Origin: a virus
Virus genome (UHGV): UHGV-0119412
Direction: 5' to 3' (one strand)
DNA length: 30,381 nt
The notes beneath the pieces are model-generated. The model ran no database searches. It saw only the letters and a program-made list of their open reading frames with translations, and was not told the DNA's origin. The translations under genes were made by a program, and so were the position numbers. Positions 10,438 to 25,989 of this stretch are shown in pieces (within the stretch, counting starts at the first letter, position 1; each line of letters begins with the position of its first letter).

Positions 10438-10568
10438 AGAATGCCGATTGTTAATGCCAAGAGCAAAACGATTCAGCTGTATGCTCTTCTACACAATTCG
10501 GTGTGCATTCATGTATCATTTGAGTGTTGAATCATTCGAAAATCACACAAAACATATGGCAGGTAGTA

Positions 10569-11405
10569 ATGAAAAGAACTTCATCTTTTAGGCGTACAAT
10601 AAGCAATATGAAATATATTATAGGTATCTTTTTTTTATACTCCGGGCTTATAGTAGGGTTGTCTGTTTATAATGATAACTACAACTCAAAATTCATGGAG
10701 AATTTTCTTGTTAATGCAAATTCTTCAATTTTAGACTTTCTTGTTTTGGGTGTGATTCTTTACTATTTTGAAAATAAAAGGCAAAATAAAGATGCTATTC
10801 ACGAACTAATTGAAGATCTTGAAAATCTGGCAAAGCATTCTTCTGCAGAACTGAATATTATGAAGATAAAAATCATACGTCAGTTAAATGCCAAAGGAAT
10901 ATATAACATTCAAGTTCCAAGGATTGAACTTGATAAAATGTCCACTATCAAATATTTACATTTTAAAGACGCTGACTTAACCGGCTTGAATATGAGTGAA
11001 TCATACATTAGAGATTGTTCTTTCGATAATTGCACAATTCAAGCTCTAAATATTACAGGCAATAGAGTTAAGAGTGTTAAATTCAAAAACTGCAAGCTAA
11101 GAAATATTAAGGCATTTAATACATGTTTTCAAAATGTTACTTTCGAAAACTGCAGTTTTGAAGGGGGGTATTTTACAGATAGCGAAATGAAAAGCTGCAT
11201 ATTAAAAGGATGTGATTTTAAATCCGTTACTTATGAAGGGGCTAACATGCGGAATGCAAATCTATTAAATTCAATTAACATTAGCGTTAAAGAACTTGTT
11301 AAAGCAAAAAACATAGATTATTTAATTTGTGATGAGCAAATTAAAAATGAAATAAGAAAGGAAAACCCAGCAATAAAAATATCTAGAGGAATAATACGAG
11401 GTTAG
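10569..11405 (+). CDS. Membrane-anchored pentapeptide-repeat protein (cargo/moron)
   Basis: Plus-strand ORF on the strand opposite to its neighbours, clearly AT-rich. Start chosen at the ATG at 10569, preceded by AGGT (the track ORF begins at a GTG at 10524). N-terminal hydrophobic helix (YIIGIFFLYSGLIVGLSVY) then tandem A(D/N)LxX-type pentapeptide repeats (DADLTGLNMSESYIRDCSFDNCTIQALNITGNRVKSVKFKNCKLRNIKAFNTCFQNVTFENCSFEGGYF...). Confidence 0.7.
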   Translation: MKRTSSFRRTISNMKYIIGIFFLYSGLIVGLSVYNDNYNSKFMENFLVNANSSILDFLVLGVILYYFENKRQNKDAIHELIEDLENLAKHSSAELNIMKIKIIRQLNAKGIYNIQVPRIELDKMSTIKYLHFKDADLTGLNMSESYIRDCSFDNCTIQALNITGNRVKSVKFKNCKLRNIKAFNTCFQNVTFENCSFEGGYFTDSEMKSCILKGCDFKSVTYEGANMRNANLLNSINISVKELVKAKNIDYLICDEQIKNEIRKENPAIKISRGIIRG

Positions 11406-19207: not shown

Positions 19208-20254
19208 ATGGGTAAACAAAAATCCCGTAAAGCCAACGCACAAAAGGCCAGCAAACCACAACAACTGATCGCCAGCGCACCGCCAAAAACGACAGCGTTC
19301 ACCTTCGGCGAGCCGGTGCCGGTACTCGATAAGCGCGACATTCTGGATTACGTCGAGTGCATCAGTAACGGCAAATGGTACGAGCCGCCGGTCAGCTTCT
19401 CAGGGCTGGCAAAGAGTCTGCGCTCTGCCGTGCATCACAGCTCGCCAATTTATGTTAAGCGTAACGTGCTCGCGAGCACCTACATTCCGCACCCGTTGTT
19501 ATCCCGTCAGGATTTCAGCCGCTTTGCGCTCGATTATCTGGTGTTCGGTAACGCCTTTCTTGAGCAGCGCCACAGCGTCACCGGCCAGTTAATCAAACTG
19601 CTGGCCTCGCCAGCCAAATACACCCGACGCGGAGTCGACGATTCGATTTTCTGGTTTGTGGAAAACTTCACCCAGCCGCACGAGTTCGCGCCTGATACCG
19701 TGTTTCACCTGCTGGAGCCCGACATTAATCAGGAGATTTACGGCCTGCCCGAATATCTCAGCGCGCTAAATTCCGCCTGGCTGAATGAATCCGCGACGCT
19801 GTTCCGCCGCAAGTATTATCAGAACGGCGCGCACGCGGGTTACATCATGTATGTGACTGACCCGGCGCAGAGCGCGACCGACGTCGAATCGCTGCGCGAG
19901 GCGATGCGCAATTCAAAAGGGCTCGGCAACTTTAAGAACCTGTTTTTCTACGCTCCCGGCGGAAAACCGGACGGCATCAAAATCGTGCCACTGAGCGAGG
20001 TCGCCACAAAGGATGACTTTTTCAACATCAAGAAGGCCAGTGCCGCCGATCTGATGGACGCGCACCGCGTACCGTTCCAGCTCATGGGCGGCAAGCCCGA
20101 GAATATCGGTTCACTCGGTGATGTTGAGAAGGTGGCAAAGGTATTTGTGCGCAACGAGCTGTCGCCGCTACAGGACAGGTTCAGGGAGGTAAATGACTGG
20201 CTCGGCATGGAGGTCATCAGATTCAAAGAGTACACCCTCGACAACCCAGAATAA
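19208..20254 (+). CDS. Q: Portal protein gpQ
   Basis: 348-aa ORF immediately after P (2-nt gap); P2 gpQ is about 344 aa. Confidence 0.9.
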   Translation: MGKQKSRKANAQKASKPQQLIASAPPKTTAFTFGEPVPVLDKRDILDYVECISNGKWYEPPVSFSGLAKSLRSAVHHSSPIYVKRNVLASTYIPHPLLSRQDFSRFALDYLVFGNAFLEQRHSVTGQLIKLLASPAKYTRRGVDDSIFWFVENFTQPHEFAPDTVFHLLEPDINQEIYGLPEYLSALNSAWLNESATLFRRKYYQNGAHAGYIMYVTDPAQSATDVESLREAMRNSKGLGNFKNLFFYAPGGKPDGIKIVPLSEVATKDDFFNIKKASAADLMDAHRVPFQLMGGKPENIGSLGDVEKVAKVFVRNELSPLQDRFREVNDWLGMEVIRFKEYTLDNPE

Positions 20255-20331
20255 CTTAGGCCGCCACAATCTCTGCGCTCATTATTGAAGATGCAATCTG
20301 CGAAAGCTATAGTGCATCGAATATCAAAACA

Positions 20332-21336
20332 ATGGGCGCGGAGATTAATATTTTGGAAACTGATTTTAAAATAACCCTCGAAGGTTTCGCTACTGAGCAA
20401 GAAGCAAATAATATCGGTAATTTCACACTAGAAGCTATCCGAGCTTTAACAAAAAATCTCAATCTTGATATCTCCAAATTAAAATGCGTGATTGTTTCCT
20501 ATAACTTCAGTGAAGCTCTTCAAAAGGTAACATCCTCTTACCAACACAAATCCCCTAGTTCGTTTACCAATAGCAAACAGGGCGCAGCCGTCGGGCAGTT
20601 AGTAACAAAAATTGGCAATGATGGGCTATGTGAAGAATATACCCTTGTGCTATCGATTGATTTTTTTGTTGAGCTTTTCAATGATGGTAGCTTCTTAAAA
20701 CTGAAAGAAGAAGGATACCTCGCAGTCATCCATCGCATTCACCATGAATTAGTGCACGTACATGAAAAAAACTTACTAACATGCTTAGCCCAAAACTTTA
20801 CAGTCAACGAGTATGGTAGCGCGCTTCTTATCTCAGCCACGCGTGCATGGTCTGAATATCTCGCTAATTACATGTCTTCGGGGTCTGCCCCTCAAGAAAC
20901 TATCGATTTATTTTTAGAGAATCTTGACACTGTTGTAAATGAAGTATCTGACGAGATTGAAAAACTCATCTGGGGTTATAAGTACGGTAATATTTCTCTG
21001 AATGACATGTATCTCGAAGTAAAAAAACGTATCAGGCTAATCATCAACTCTTATGCTTATGCGATGGGTTATGTCCATTCTCTAAACATCAATATTAAAG
21101 AATACGATCCAAAGCTATCCCTTACACTATCCAACTCAAAGATAAGATATCAATTATCAGAATTAGGCATTGCTTTTCAGAATCTTTATGGGAAGTTTAA
21201 TGACCAGCACATTACAGGTTTTGGTGATTTTCGGGAGATAACAATAATCATTGATGAAATATTCAAGCAGTTTGGGCTTGTTTTAGAGTGTCCCGATTGG
21301 TCTGGCGACGGTGAACTCTACATACATGTAAATTAG
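20332..21336 (+). CDS. Hypothetical cargo protein with HExxH...NE motif (putative zinc-metallopeptidase-like), between portal and cos
   Basis: 334-aa AT-rich ORF. HHELVH at about nt 20740-20757, with NEYGS about 17 residues later, resembles the gluzincin HExxH-x(n)-E pattern. No obvious Shine-Dalgarno before the first ATG. Confidence 0.6.
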   Translation: MGAEINILETDFKITLEGFATEQEANNIGNFTLEAIRALTKNLNLDISKLKCVIVSYNFSEALQKVTSSYQHKSPSSFTNSKQGAAVGQLVTKIGNDGLCEEYTLVLSIDFFVELFNDGSFLKLKEEGYLAVIHRIHHELVHVHEKNLLTCLAQNFTVNEYGSALLISATRAWSEYLANYMSSGSAPQETIDLFLENLDTVVNEVSDEIEKLIWGYKYGNISLNDMYLEVKKRIRLIINSYAYAMGYVHSLNINIKEYDPKLSLTLSNSKIRYQLSELGIAFQNLYGKFNDQHITGFGDFREITIIIDEIFKQFGLVLECPDWSGDGELYIHVN

Positions 21337-21555
21337 TTTAATCATAGTAGAAACATAATTAGCAGTTTGAATCCTGCCACTCCTGTAAAGCCGCTGCTCC
21401 TGGTGGCTTTTCCATGCACACCACCATCACGCATCAGATGCGTCTCACGCGCACGAACACACCCGACCACCAACGAACCAGCAGCGACCACGACAGCGCC
21501 ATCACGACGCGCTCAGAGGATAATTTTTATTATTACGCATCACTGCTGGCGCGCA

Positions 21556-21574
21556 ATGCTTTCCCCGCCACGCC
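21556..21574. other. cos site (19-nt cohesive-end sequence, 186-type)
   Basis: The plus strand reads ATGCTTTCCCCGCCACGCC, whose reverse complement GGCGTGGCGGGGAAAGCAT matches the 186 cohesive end as I recall it (P2 differs at two positions); it lies in a GC-rich non-coding stretch between Q and the replication region, as expected. Confidence 0.6.
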
Positions 21575-21772
21575 TGCCCGCTTTATGGGGCGGTTTTAAT
21601 GCAGTTGCATGACCACTCTGGATCCCCGCCAGCTCTTGCGGCGCACGTACAAAACGGGTAATCCCGGCGCATGCAGAACCATGCACCTGTTGCATGCACA
21701 GCTTATTTATTGATAAATCACCTTAAATTTACAAAAATTACGGACATTGGTTCTTTCCAAACATGATAGCCT

Positions 21773-21788
21773 CTCGATAATTATCGAG
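21773..21788. promoter_or_regulatory. Perfect 16-bp palindrome CTCGATAATTATCGAG upstream of the 313-aa cargo gene (putative operator overlapping a -10-like GATAAT)
   Basis: Seen directly; ends about 14 nt before the GGAG Shine-Dalgarno of the ORF starting at 21812. Confidence 0.4.
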
Positions 21789-21811
21789 CCTATTTTTGAA
21801 CGGAGAAAGAT

Positions 21812-22753
21812 ATGCAAGGTGAAGTTGACGAACAGCAACCCAATGAGATTATGTCGGAGTTTGGATACTATCCAGTAGAAGTTAACATTGAGACTGAACA
21901 ATTTTCTTTGCTTACTTTACCTGGTCTCAATGAGAAAGTGGAGCGTGTTAACAATGATAAAAACGTTGTGAAAGGTTGGATATACCCTGGAAACCAAGAT
22001 GTATATAACCTTAATGGTGGCATATCCACAATGCCTTATAGTCACCGTGTATTCAGTATGCCCAAAACGCACACACTAAAATTAAAAAATACATCCTCGT
22101 TAGAAACTCTCAACTTTATTGTGTGGTGCCTTTCTTTTTTCAAGGGAATAAGATTGACAACCACTGACGCTGGTTTTTTAGATGCAACCACTATCAAGCC
22201 CACTAAGTTAACCGACTTTATTCTCGTTGGATGCTCTGAAAAAGAAATCATAGAACTGGCTCTTAATTATATAAATGGCAAACATAAGGATGCGCACTCC
22301 CCCAAAAGAATTGCGGCAGTGGTGCATGCACTATTCTTATCTCAAAACCCACAATACCTTTCTTTTGAAAAATTCCAGTACCTTTACATGGCACTTGATG
22401 GGTGCTTTGCTTTGTCGTGGGCTGAGCATGACAAGGCTCCTGATAAAAAACCGCCAAATCATTACAAGCGATTAAAGTGGATGTGCAAAATTTATGGGTT
22501 ATCAATTCCCACATGGGTGTCAGGTAAAAAAAACATTTCTGGCATCCGCAATGATAATTTTCATGAGGCTATTTTTTTTGGTCAACCGCTTGGTTTCTCA
22601 AGTATTAACAACAGTCAATATGGTAACGATATATTGCTGCAAATGCAGGCACTGGTATGTCGCCTATTAGCGGCAATACTGTCGGTTAATGATTGCAGTT
22701 ATCTCAAATCTTCGGTCAACTCACGAGATTACCATTCATTAAAAATAAATTAA
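21812..22753 (+). CDS. Hypothetical cargo protein with HEPN-like RNxxxH motif (candidate abortive-infection/defence RNase)
   Basis: 313-aa AT-rich ORF with a good Shine-Dalgarno (GGAGAAAGA) and the motif GIRNDNFHEAIFFG (about nt 22546-22563); it sits where P2 carries old/tin, between cos and the replication module. Confidence 0.65.
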   Translation: MQGEVDEQQPNEIMSEFGYYPVEVNIETEQFSLLTLPGLNEKVERVNNDKNVVKGWIYPGNQDVYNLNGGISTMPYSHRVFSMPKTHTLKLKNTSSLETLNFIVWCLSFFKGIRLTTTDAGFLDATTIKPTKLTDFILVGCSEKEIIELALNYINGKHKDAHSPKRIAAVVHALFLSQNPQYLSFEKFQYLYMALDGCFALSWAEHDKAPDKKPPNHYKRLKWMCKIYGLSIPTWVSGKKNISGIRNDNFHEAIFFGQPLGFSSINNSQYGNDILLQMQALVCRLLAAILSVNDCSYLKSSVNSRDYHSLKIN

Positions 22754-22760
22754 TACTAAC

Positions 22761-22823
22761 GCCTCGCGGTGCTCGTTGTTCAATCCCCGCCAGTACTGAA
22801 AGCGAGTTTCAGAACCGGCGGCG
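22761..22823. repeat. Copy 1 of a ~63-nt imperfect direct repeat with an internal short palindrome
   Basis: GCCTCGCGGTGCTCGTTGTTCAATCCCCGCCAGTACTGAAAGCGAGTTTCAG..., similar to the copy at 23167; internal palindrome CTGAAA..TTTCAG. Confidence 0.4.
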
Positions 22824-22827
22824 TTTG

Positions 22828-23037
22828 CTATCGTCGACGTGGTGGTGGTGCGTATTGTTTCGACCTGCTGATGCTATCCAGCTTGCCGTAATTATCCCTG
22901 ACTATTTCGGCACACCCGACCAGCTCTGCGGGTGTCAAATTCTCATTGACCATTATCTGCTGCAAACGATGAACGATGGCCATCAGTTTGATGCTTTTAG
23001 TTTTGTGCTGCGGTATTTCACCTGGTAGTCGATGCAT
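22828..23037 (-). CDS. Small hypothetical protein (69 aa)
   Basis: ATG preceded by GAGGGTG at appropriate spacing; lies between the two direct-repeat copies; no recognisable motif. Confidence 0.4.
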   Translation of the reverse strand: MHRLPGEIPQHKTKSIKLMAIVHRLQQIMVNENLTPAELVGCAEIVRDNYGKLDSISRSKQYAPPPRRR

Positions 23038-23166
23038 ATTATCACCCTCAATGAATTTTAATCAGTGCCGTCAAAACGCCACTATAAAACCATCTCAGGT
23101 CATGCCTCATTAATCATGGGCGTGTCATCAATAGCACATTGAGAAATTTTGAAAGGCAGGACTTAA

Positions 23167-23227
23167 GCCTCGTGGGCTCGTTACTCAACCCCGCCGACGC
23201 AAAAAGCTAGTTTTTGCGCCAGCACGG
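23167..23227. repeat. Copy 2 of the ~63-nt imperfect direct repeat
   Basis: GCCTCGTGGGCTCGTTACTCAACCCCGCCGACGCAAAAAGCTAGTTTTTGCG...; the internal palindrome GCAAAAAGCT/AGTTTTTGC has a different stem sequence from copy 1 at the equivalent place. Confidence 0.4.
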
Positions 23228-23236
23228 TTATTATGT

Positions 23237-23467
23237 TTAACGCCAGCTATCGTCTTCCCAAATCTCTTGTAATATGCTGCCTAATGTTTCTCTGTCCGCC
23301 TCTTTATCGAATCCGATAGCCTCTACACCAGTCATTGACCCTTTCTTAACGTTAACTTTTGTTGCAGGAAAAACGCATTGTACTCGATGTGTTATTTCAT
23401 TCTGAAAAGCATCAATGATCTGTTGCCCTAATTTTTGCTCTTTATCCAACGTGATATTGATTCTCAT
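23237..23467 (-). CDS. DinI-family protein (equivalent to the Tum C-terminal/DinI-like domain)
   Basis: 76-aa ORF MRINITLDKEQ...GSILQEIWEDDSWR closely resembles E. coli DinI as recalled (MRIEVTI...ISEILQETWES...); it lies downstream of a LexA box. Confidence 0.75.
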   Translation of the reverse strand: MRINITLDKEQKLGQQIIDAFQNEITHRVQCVFPATKVNVKKGSMTGVEAIGFDKEADRETLGSILQEIWEDDSWR

Positions 23468-23470
23468 AAT

Positions 23471-23653
23471 CTAATCAGCCTTATAAAAATTATCATCTTC
23501 GGTTTCGTTATTTTCGCTGTTTGCTAGGTCTGCAATGAGAGTGAGCGCGAGCTTTAAGTCTGATGGCTTGCAGTTTGCAATCAGAGATACCTCGGCAATA
23601 AATTGCACACAAGCCCACTTTTGCTGCGTTCGGCTGAAATGTTCGCCAACCAT
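23471..23653 (-). CDS. Small protein, in-frame upstream partner of the DinI-like ORF (possible Tum N-terminal domain)
   Basis: 60-aa ORF with a GGAGG Shine-Dalgarno; separated from the DinI-like ORF by a single in-frame TAG plus one codon; acidic C-terminus. Confidence 0.5.
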   Translation of the reverse strand: MVGEHFSRTQQKWACVQFIAEVSLIANCKPSDLKLALTLIADLANSENNETEDDNFYKAD

Positions 23654-23674
23654 GAAATCCCTCCCATAGGGTTA

Positions 23675-23690
23675 CTGTATATTTATACAG
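23675..23690. promoter_or_regulatory. LexA box (SOS operator) CTGTATATTTATACAG overlapping the promoter of the Tum/DinI-like operon
   Basis: Matches the CTGT-N8-ACAG consensus; lies 22-37 nt upstream of the 60-aa ORF start in the gap after gene A; TTGCCA and TATAAA-like hexamers are present on the minus strand. Confidence 0.7.
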
Positions 23691-23766
23691 TAGCACGTAT
23701 TGGCAAAAGATGGGAAGAAAAAAAACGAATAGAGCGATTGCTGTATGTGCATGATATGGATATGAA

Positions 23767-25989
23767 TTACTCATGTATTGGTTTTGATGCTTCAGCCATC
23801 GCCGCAACACGATTAAGGATTTTCCGAGCTTTAGCCTCATGCGATGGTGCTGCGGAAAATATTTCTCCTTTGGCCGTTCCGCGTAGCCATTTACCATCAA
23901 AACAACTTTTACCACCGGCCATCAGGTGCAGGGCTTCGCCCCGGCTGATATTAATGCCGGTTGTCAGATGTATTTCGTCGATAGTTTTAGCTATAGCTGC
24001 GTTTTGCTCATCCGTTCCGTGGATGAATTTTCGCCGTGCTGCTGGCTTTTGCTTCCTGAGTCGGTTGGTCAATTCTCGTCTTTCATGCCGACTCAGTGGT
24101 TTTGTTAAATCCAGTATCGGTGGATCGCTTTCGCTTCCCGTACAGTTATTGACAGAACTCCGAGGGACGGCTTTGCCGTCCTGAAGGTCAACGGCCAAAT
24201 CAACAGCACGCTTCGGAACAATCTTCCACTGAGTGAGCCGGGTTAAAATCGGGCTTCCTGCACCTATGGAGGAATCGTAGACCCCCTTAATACATACCGT
24301 TTCCTCACCGTACTGATTAAGCTCGGTACGCGGTTCATACAGTGTGCGCACCTGTAAATCATCGCGACGGACAAACGGCCCACCCTGAGCATTAACATAA
24401 CCAGCCCAGTCACCAGCGTCGGCGGCATCATGGACGGCGGCAAACTCAACGCTCAGACCGTGCGCGGTTTCGGTATCAGCGAGGCGACGCAACTCACGGT
24501 AAACCGTCACCGGCGCACCACCAATAAACTGAAACTGACGGATGTGCCAGCGCGCAGCCCATGCTGAAACGGCGGGGGCTGTCTCTTTCAGCAGCTCACC
24601 GCTTTCATCATCGGTTTCACCATCGAGAGCATAACCGTCGATATTTTTTGAAATGTATTTAGCAACATAGCCGGTTGCGCTGCCTTTCTCCGGGTTAATG
24701 GACTCGGCGTGGAAACGTGCTTTTTTGGATTTATCGCTTTTCAGTTCGTGGCGGTCTTCTTTCCATGCGTATTTACGGACGATGGAGCGAACATATTCAA
24801 CATCTTCCGGCAGCATGAACATCAGCATGTGCCAGTGTGGAGTGCCGTCGTGATGGGGCTCGGCGACACGAATACCGAAAATACGGACATCTTCCCGATG
24901 TAGTTTGGCACGGATACGCGCCCAGATACCGGTTAGATAGTTTTGCGTGTCAGCCGGGCTGGCACCGCTCCATTTGCTGTTACGGTAACCGGCTTTAGTC
25001 GTGGCGTGATATTTTGACGGCGCGGTTAGAGTGTAAAACTCACCGACATAACCGAGCTCATTACAGATGTTTTCAAACCCACGAATGCGGGTCATGAGCT
25101 CACAGCGGCGAATCGCAGGGTTAGCAACTGAGCCATCATATTTTTCAATCAGGCTGATACGGTTGCCGTCTTCGTCTTCGAGATCCAGACCTTTGAGAAA
25201 TTCACGAGTGCGGCGCTTTTGTTCACGCCAGTCAGTCACGCAGTTTTTACTCGCGTAAGTGTTTTTTTTCTTACTGACGTTGCCGACTGCAATTTGCAGG
25301 TGTTCGCGCCACGTAGCTGCAACACGGCGCAAACGACCGCGCCACCACCCATCGTTAAACATTTTGGCGATAGCCGGTGCGATTTCATCCGCACCGACAT
25401 ATTTTTTTTCAACCCGCTCCCAATGTGGTGGGATAACGTTGAATTGGAGGGAAATAAAGCCAGCACGAATATACCAGGTGTACAGCGTTTTAAGCTCGCC
25501 GAATCCGTGGTCATTAATGTTGGCAAGTTCACCACGAATGAAATTAGCAATATCAGCGGCCAACAGGTCAACATCAGCGCGCGACATGTCCGGGAGACGG
25601 TTATATCGGGCGACCATATTAACCATGCGTGACGACAGATATTGCATTTGCTGAGTATCAAAATGACTTCCAAAAACAGCGGTTGATACCTTGCTGTTGA
25701 TACCAGCGCATTCGTATTTTTTTGCGACCAGTTCAAGACGCGGCAATGCCTTTTTGCAGAAGCTGATTAAAAATGCATTGGCTCGTTGACTACCCTGATT
25801 TTGCTCCAGCACCGCAGCAGTGCGATAAACATCTAACCGCACGCAGTCGGGCTGGAGAGAAAGCACCTTTTTTGCATGCAGCAAAGCCGCGAACATACGG
25901 TCGCGGCGATGCTGTTGCTCATAAGTAAGGTATGGGCTGGAGATTGCCGACCGTGGGACGTTCCACGGATAAGCGAATTGAACAGCCAA
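23767..25989 (-). CDS. A: Replication initiation protein A (rolling-circle nickase, gpA-type)
   Basis: 740-aa ORF with an HUH-type motif (TPHWHMLMF); it follows the small early genes as in P2/186. Confidence 0.9.
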   Translation of the reverse strand: MAVQFAYPWNVPRSAISSPYLTYEQQHRRDRMFAALLHAKKVLSLQPDCVRLDVYRTAAVLEQNQGSQRANAFLISFCKKALPRLELVAKKYECAGINSKVSTAVFGSHFDTQQMQYLSSRMVNMVARYNRLPDMSRADVDLLAADIANFIRGELANINDHGFGELKTLYTWYIRAGFISLQFNVIPPHWERVEKKYVGADEIAPAIAKMFNDGWWRGRLRRVAATWREHLQIAVGNVSKKKNTYASKNCVTDWREQKRRTREFLKGLDLEDEDGNRISLIEKYDGSVANPAIRRCELMTRIRGFENICNELGYVGEFYTLTAPSKYHATTKAGYRNSKWSGASPADTQNYLTGIWARIRAKLHREDVRIFGIRVAEPHHDGTPHWHMLMFMLPEDVEYVRSIVRKYAWKEDRHELKSDKSKKARFHAESINPEKGSATGYVAKYISKNIDGYALDGETDDESGELLKETAPAVSAWAARWHIRQFQFIGGAPVTVYRELRRLADTETAHGLSVEFAAVHDAADAGDWAGYVNAQGGPFVRRDDLQVRTLYEPRTELNQYGEETVCIKGVYDSSIGAGSPILTRLTQWKIVPKRAVDLAVDLQDGKAVPRSSVNNCTGSESDPPILDLTKPLSRHERRELTNRLRKQKPAARRKFIHGTDEQNAAIAKTIDEIHLTTGINISRGEALHLMAGGKSCFDGKWLRGTAKGEIFSAAPSHEAKARKILNRVAAMAEASKPIHE

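Follow-up and report, generated by a model that had tools for sequence, protein, structure and literature searches.

The window analyzed here (the whole 30,381-nt stretch of UHGV virus genome UHGV-0119412) is a P2/186-type (Peduoviridae) prophage, read in the orientation opposite to the conventional P2 map, and it carries an ATG-started open reading frame (ORF) of 313 amino acids (aa), designated ORF313 (21812-22753, + strand). We propose that ORF313 is an acquired cargo gene (moron) for a single-protein, infection-activated HEPN ribonuclease (RNase) that would act by abortive infection, a reading to which we assign a probability of roughly 0.6; anti-phage activity is a prediction. The basis for this reading is the gene itself, its position in a defence hotspot, foreign composition, purifying selection, conservation of a catalytic-type motif, the predicted fold of the protein, a solo organization, and recurrent defence-gene neighbors of its homologues. 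An earlier interpretation made from the nucleotide sequence alone (the sequence-only reading), which took the gene for a candidate single-gene anti-phage or toxin-like system with a HEPN-like motif, is supported overall.

The motif to which that interpretation had pointed (GIRNDNFHEAIFFG, of the form RNxxxH) is present, with R246 encoded at 22547-22549 and H251 at 22562-22564. Across 33 homologues, R246, N247, H251, and E252 are invariant; in a second alignment of 40 sequences, which reaches down to 24% identity, H251 is invariant together with E186, G112, G261, and R284, and R246, N247, E252, H217, and R220 are at least 90% conserved. RNxxxH is the best-conserved feature of the ORF313 family, and its conservation, as judged from these alignments, is far above chance. 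The HEPN signature consists of Rx4-6H with N, D, or H after the arginine, together with another acidic residue that is also conserved, usually within Ex3[KR] (PMC3710099). The ORF313 motif has the Rx4-6H spacing and a polar residue after the arginine; a candidate for the second acidic residue is the invariant E186, within a predicted helix (184-206), and the +4 position from it is Y190 rather than the K or R of Ex3[KR].

An AlphaFold model of ORF313 (predicted local distance difference test, pLDDT, 79.8; predicted template modeling score, pTM, 0.82) is rich in beta structure toward the N terminus and helical toward the C terminus. The best matches of the predicted C-terminal domain are solved HEPN domains, on which its helical bundle can be superimposed, and minimal HEPN toxins and abortive infection (Abi) proteins with solved structures (HepT/SO_3166, AbiV, HepS of Gifsy-1, and the HEPN domain of Csm6) are among the known systems closest to ORF313; a Foldseek search of the ORF313 model against the PDB gave no significant match. 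Because of the motif conservation, the fit to the HEPN signature, and the AlphaFold model, we conclude that the C-terminal domain, as modeled, is of a divergent HEPN type in which the catalytic motif is intact, in agreement with the HEPN-like character suggested earlier. The N-terminal domain, of unrecognized fold, is presumed to be sensory or regulatory.

Several results weigh against this assignment or against a role in defence. Scans of the ORF313 protein against Pfam, NCBIfam, and PADLOC, the last a library designed to cover published defence systems, returned no match at E <= 1, in line with the statement in the sequence-only reading that no named family was recognized. When 33 and then 40 family members were scanned against Pfam, HEPN_Apea (PF18739) was matched by only one of the 40 (E 0.15), and profile searches of the PDB with the 33-homologue and 40-sequence alignments yielded no HEPN relative. 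In the model, the loop that follows the catalytic helix (residues 260-269) has a pLDDT below 50. Homologues in Aeromonas and Acinetobacter seifertii lie in small insertions with no known defence gene nearby, and neither the tested set of Rousset Table S2 nor that of DefensePredictor Table S8 contains the ORF313 protein. As general background, divergent HEPN families are often without a significant match to curated profiles (PMC3710099).

A relation to NrdB was considered and rejected. The PDB profile search with 33 homologues aligned the N terminus of Escherichia coli NrdB (KNDQLKEPMFFGQP) with RNDNFHEAIFFGQP, the catalytic-loop sequence of the enterobacterial subfamily (22544-22585; aa 245-258), at E 0.012; the match was lost with the more diverse 40-sequence profile, and for that reason is probably due to chance.

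ORF313 is situated between cos, at a distance of about 235 bp, and the replication gene gpA; it is followed by a 69-aa ORF in convergent orientation, then by a DinI-like gene, a small ORF, and gpA. This is the cos-proximal part of the gpQ-gpA locus in which P2 has old and tin, so that the old/tin position claimed for the gene is borne out; the locus has been established experimentally as a hotspot of anti-phage systems (Rousset et al., 2022; PMC9122126). As a variable gene between gpQ and gpA beside cos, ORF313 has the location of P2-type hotspot cargo. It shares with old/tin and other gpQ-gpA cargo the locus, a moron-like organization (AT-rich, with its own signals), and an expected role in inter-phage competition, although Old itself is an ABC ATPase-TOPRIM protein unrelated to ORF313. 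The GC content of ORF313 is 38.4% (36.9% at third codon positions, GC3), vs. 51.8% for the whole window and 51-55% for the flanking gpQ and gpA. Among phage copies, the ratio of nonsynonymous to synonymous polymorphism (pN/pS) is 0.2-0.28, by which measure ORF313 is under purifying selection.

The description of an AT-rich 313-aa ORF with its own Shine-Dalgarno sequence holds (Table 1), and promoter-like and terminator-like signals of its own appear to accompany the gene. The promoter-like hexamers are weaker in related phages (TTTGCG and GAGAAT). The inverted repeat 3' of the gene, by its sequence, is probably a bidirectional terminator that serves both ORF313 and ORF69, which converges on it. 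ORF313 also lies between the two copies (21622-21632 and 22783-22793) of an 11-bp direct repeat (ATCCCCGCCAG) that the window has at no other place; this repeat was considered as an insertion scar and rejected, the second copy being absent in two of three relatives that are ~99% identical.

The sequence-only reading also placed a palindromic operator over the promoter. A perfect palindrome (CTCGATAATTATCGAG) does lie on the -10-like hexamer, but its role as an operator is weakly supported. The window contains three perfect 16-bp palindromes, where shuffles that preserve local composition lead one to expect 0.55 per window, and CTCGATAATTATCGAG taken alone is, on such a count, not beyond chance. 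Four related phages have an imperfect version (TACGAGAATTATCGTG or ...CGAG) in which the core CGAnAATTATCG is retained. In three of these four, both sides differ at one outer position (T..A to A..T); because the paired change is broken in the fourth, selected symmetry is thinly supported. An equivalent palindrome was sought upstream of non-phage homologues of ORF313, and none was found. The palindrome is a possible operator or 5' hairpin.

Table 1. Positions of ORF313-related features and of surrounding prophage landmarks in the window.
Feature	Coordinates	Strand	Remarks
Terminase gpP, then portal gpQ	19208-20254 (gpQ)	+ (gpQ)	Upstream of ORF334 and cos
cos region	21401-21574	.	Matches annotated cos ends of phages PSP3 and 186
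P2-type cohesive-end sequence	~21556-21576	.	Readable in the sequence
Promoter-like site	21754-21781	+	-35 TTTCCA (21754-21759), 16-nt spacer, -10 GATAAT (21776-21781); consensus scan, 9/12 matches
Perfect 16-bp palindrome	21773-21788	.	Spans the -10-like GATAAT; 23 nt 5' of the ORF313 ATG
Shine-Dalgarno GGAG	21802-21805	+	6 nt 5' of the ATG, direct reading; ribosome-binding site annotated at the equivalent place for ORF313 of AM157369
N-terminal domain (aa 1-142)	21812-22237	+	Predicted beta-sheet and two helices; conserved G18, P21, W56, F81, T86, H87, F102, G112, R114, D135
HEPN-like helical C-terminal domain (aa 143-313), with the stop codon	22238-22753	+	Invariant E186, H251, G261, R284
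Codons R246-N-D-N-F-H251 (Rx4H motif)	22547-22564	+	Polar N after R; in predicted helix 242-256
Inverted repeat, 21-nt arms	22781-22827	.	28 nt 3' of the ORF313 stop; arms 81% complementary, 5-nt gap
Replication gene gpA	23767-25989	-	After the DinI-like gene and the small ORF

Two other genes of the hotspot deserve description. ORF69 (22828-23037, - strand; 69 aa), which is convergent with ORF313 and shares the terminator-like repeat with it, belongs to phrog_11386 (function unknown). ORF334 (20332-21336, + strand; 334 aa) is a second AT-rich cargo gene (37.7% GC) situated just after gpQ, across cos from ORF313; it belongs to phrog_11743 and has no match in Pfam or PADLOC. The 78 homologues of ORF334 have an invariant H134/H137/H138-E139-x-x-H142/E145 block, an HExxH motif of the zincin-like metallopeptidase type.

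Copies of ORF313 are widely distributed. Phage vB_EcoM-613R3 carries a copy that is 99.4% identical, and more distant copies (~79-88% nucleotide identity over the matched region) were found in P2-EC67, vB_EcoM-720R8, Yersinia phages, and a Salmonella phage; that of P2-EC67 (AM157369) was deposited under the name 'ORF313'. Among 5,426 complete E. coli genomes, 93 carry ORF313, always on the chromosome. The copy in E. coli N56 (NZ_CM165908.1; locus L013, 4113-4856) is 99.9% identical with a 1-bp length difference, is annotated as a 247-aa coding sequence, and appears to be truncated. Each of the 397 homologues that a protein search yielded has a hypothetical annotation; the taxa represented are enterobacteria, Aeromonas, Pseudomonas, Acinetobacter, Stenotrophomonas, and Providencia. 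An exhaustive profile search gave 656 representatives at 50% identity, nearly all of which are 290-320 aa long and align over the full length of the profile; on these matches, the ORF313 family is a well-defined two-domain family.

The sequence-only reading regarded ORF313 as an unrecognized, novel candidate. This stands in that no named family matches, but the family had already been catalogued: as ORF313 of P2-EC67; as phrog_5937 (function unknown), which ORF313 matches in PHROGs; and as the unnamed system #11 of Rousset et al. (2022; PMC9122126; Table S5B), a one-gene system with 218 loci that is the 11th most frequent in the hotspot. A 314-aa homologue in Table S5B corresponds to P0017, which is 74% identical to the window protein. 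System #11 is the only form in which ORF313 appears in Rousset et al. (2022), and it lies outside the systems tested in that paper. No mention of ORF313 or P2-EC67 was found in the literature searched, the coverage of which did not extend to the prophage-defence screen of Brenes and Laub (2025).

In all 10 genomic contexts examined, ORF313 or its homologue is a solo gene with varying neighbors. A Pseudomonas aeruginosa homologue is ~3 kb from a Gabija-like pair (OLD-type ATPase-TOPRIM and UvrD helicase), in an island that also includes ParB and DUF932 genes; in Providencia islands, the homologue adjoins either AbiH and a TIR protein, or a type I restriction-modification (RM) system and GmrSD. 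The Stenotrophomonas homologue is Tn7-like cargo, that of Pseudomonas putida is within an integrase island, and that of Acinetobacter guillouiae is a moron of an unrelated prophage with a P22-type portal. Taken as sequence evidence, the genomic context supports a defence role for ORF313. At the P. aeruginosa locus (L003, 7840-8000), the homologue starts ~120 nt after a sequence resembling a tRNA 3' end (...GGTTCGATTCCGGC...CACCA), and ARAGORN detected no complete tRNA there; a tRNA-3'-end-like sequence without a complete tRNA suggests the remnant of an attachment (att) site at the island boundary.

The same contexts bear on the alternative that ORF313 encodes a HEPN RNase with a non-defence role in the prophage, whether as an addiction or stabilization toxin, in remodeling of host RNA during the lytic cycle, or in anti-defence by degradation of cyclic oligonucleotides (cf. 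some Csm6 HEPN domains). The HEPN fold and motif alone do not reveal the use of the enzyme; HEPN domains are also found in the toxins of toxin-antitoxin systems and can deplete cyclic oligoadenylate signals, and the ORF313 gene is carried by phages. However, no conserved antitoxin or MNT nucleotidyltransferase neighbor is seen in any of the 10 contexts, and no tandem repeat or credible Rfam match that might represent an RNA antitoxin was found in 20200-23800. Furthermore, the neighbors of homologues in bacterial islands are RM, Abi, TIR, and Gabija genes and not phage early genes, and the gpQ-gpA locus is a validated defence hotspot. We regard a non-defence role as unlikely.

Slightly less likely is that the protein is HEPN-like but without catalytic activity, for example a regulator that binds RNA or a ligand, or a helical bundle with no more than a resemblance to HEPN; RNxxxH would then serve binding or structure. 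Least probable is that ORF313 forms part of a multi-gene unit with ORF334 and ORF69. In favor of such a unit, all three genes occupy the hotspot and are found jointly in E. coli prophages that are ~99% identical, and an ORF69 homologue follows ORF313 in Yersinia phage YPM-4. Against it, ORF313 occurs without ORF334 in P2-EC67, vB_EcoM-720R8, YPM-4, and MET_P1, and ORF334 occurs in one hotspot locus whose listed genes exclude the ORF313 protein accession. In vB_EcoM-720R8 only a truncated ORF69 is left, and in MET_P1 a different gene takes its place. Neither ORF334 nor ORF69 is present at any non-phage homologue, and in the list of Rousset et al. the family is a system of one gene.

Among characterized single-protein HEPN defences, ApeA (Gao et al., 2020; Ec1ApeA and Ec2ApeA) resembles ORF313 in being encoded by a single gene and in having a C-terminal HEPN domain with a conserved R...H site after non-catalytic domains. 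ApeA causes abortive infection by cleavage of tRNA anticodons; the site of its activation is a pocket that its N-terminal and HEPN domains have between them. By description, ApeA has ~560-580 aa and three mostly helical domains (N, Mid, and a split HEPN_ApeA), and forms decamers or dodecamers, whereas ORF313 has 313 aa and two domains, the N-terminal one beta-rich. Membership in ApeA was rejected on account of the difference in size and three-domain architecture, the absence of a PADLOC match, and the solitary weak HEPN_Apea hit. DARNA (PD-T7-3) of E. coli is likewise a single-protein HEPN defence that acts by abortive infection through promiscuous cleavage of tRNA anticodons, with an infection-specific cue sensed by its non-HEPN domain. 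In DARNA (456 aa), HEPN is at the N terminus and is followed by a Pds5-like helical C-terminal domain that senses single-stranded DNA, so that the domain order of ORF313 is reversed; membership was rejected on this ground and because PADLOC gave no match. Two further HEPN systems were rejected as well: the HepT/MntA type VII toxin-antitoxin system, as no nucleotidyltransferase gene adjoins ORF313 in the window or its homologues in related loci, and a type III system with an RNA antitoxin (AbiF-like), in view of the negative search for repeats and Rfam families described above. ORF313 is best classed as a putative HEPN-based single-protein defence whose family is abundant and catalogued, and unnamed.

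For this proposed infection-activated HEPN RNase, we infer the following mode of action. ORF313, a moron that the 186/P2-type prophage gained by horizontal transfer, would be expressed in the lysogen from its own promoter, possibly subject to regulation at the palindrome, to give a protein in which the N-terminal domain is joined to a C-terminal HEPN RNase domain with an RNxxxHE active-site motif. The protein would be kept silent by the N-terminal domain or by its oligomeric state. Upon infection by another phage, a phage-derived cue would act via the N-terminal domain or the interdomain interface, whereupon the HEPN domains would pair to form a composite, metal-independent RNase site. Cleavage of an essential RNA would then halt translation and phage growth; tRNA anticodon loops are the likeliest target, because these are cut by the solo HEPN defences ApeA and DARNA.

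Elsewhere in the window, a 293-aa ORF (10524-11405, + strand) of 29.7% GC encodes pentapeptide repeats (Pfam E 1.8e-16), and its N-terminal region has a weak SLATT-like PADLOC match (E 7e-5). The oppositely oriented ORFs on either side of it are presumably P2 tail and baseplate genes. By its sequence, this ORF is probably another moron, and possibly defence-related. Between ORF69 and gpA, at 23237-23653 (- strand) and leftward, are the DinI-like gene (Pfam E 1.7e-17) and a 60-aa ORF that is annotated as 'UV induction of prophage' in the near-identical phage 613R3, in which cI, cII, and fil genes lie beyond gpA. On the basis of these genes, the control region looks 186-like rather than P2-like, which would imply that the prophage is SOS-inducible.

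By frequency, ORF313 ranks among the leading cargo genes of the P2 hotspot, and since its family is not seen by Pfam, NCBIfam, or PADLOC models, annotation with those libraries would miss it. A HEPN gene in the P2 hotspot would not surprise specialists; the experimental appeal lies in the size of the family, its invisibility to the libraries, and the presumed sensor domain. If confirmed as a defence, ORF313 would represent a compact, 313-aa single-protein HEPN system with an unexplored sensor domain, and a small, tractable model for how HEPN nucleases are silenced and triggered. It would also help to account for the resistance to phages of clinical E. coli, Salmonella, Klebsiella, Pseudomonas, and Acinetobacter strains.
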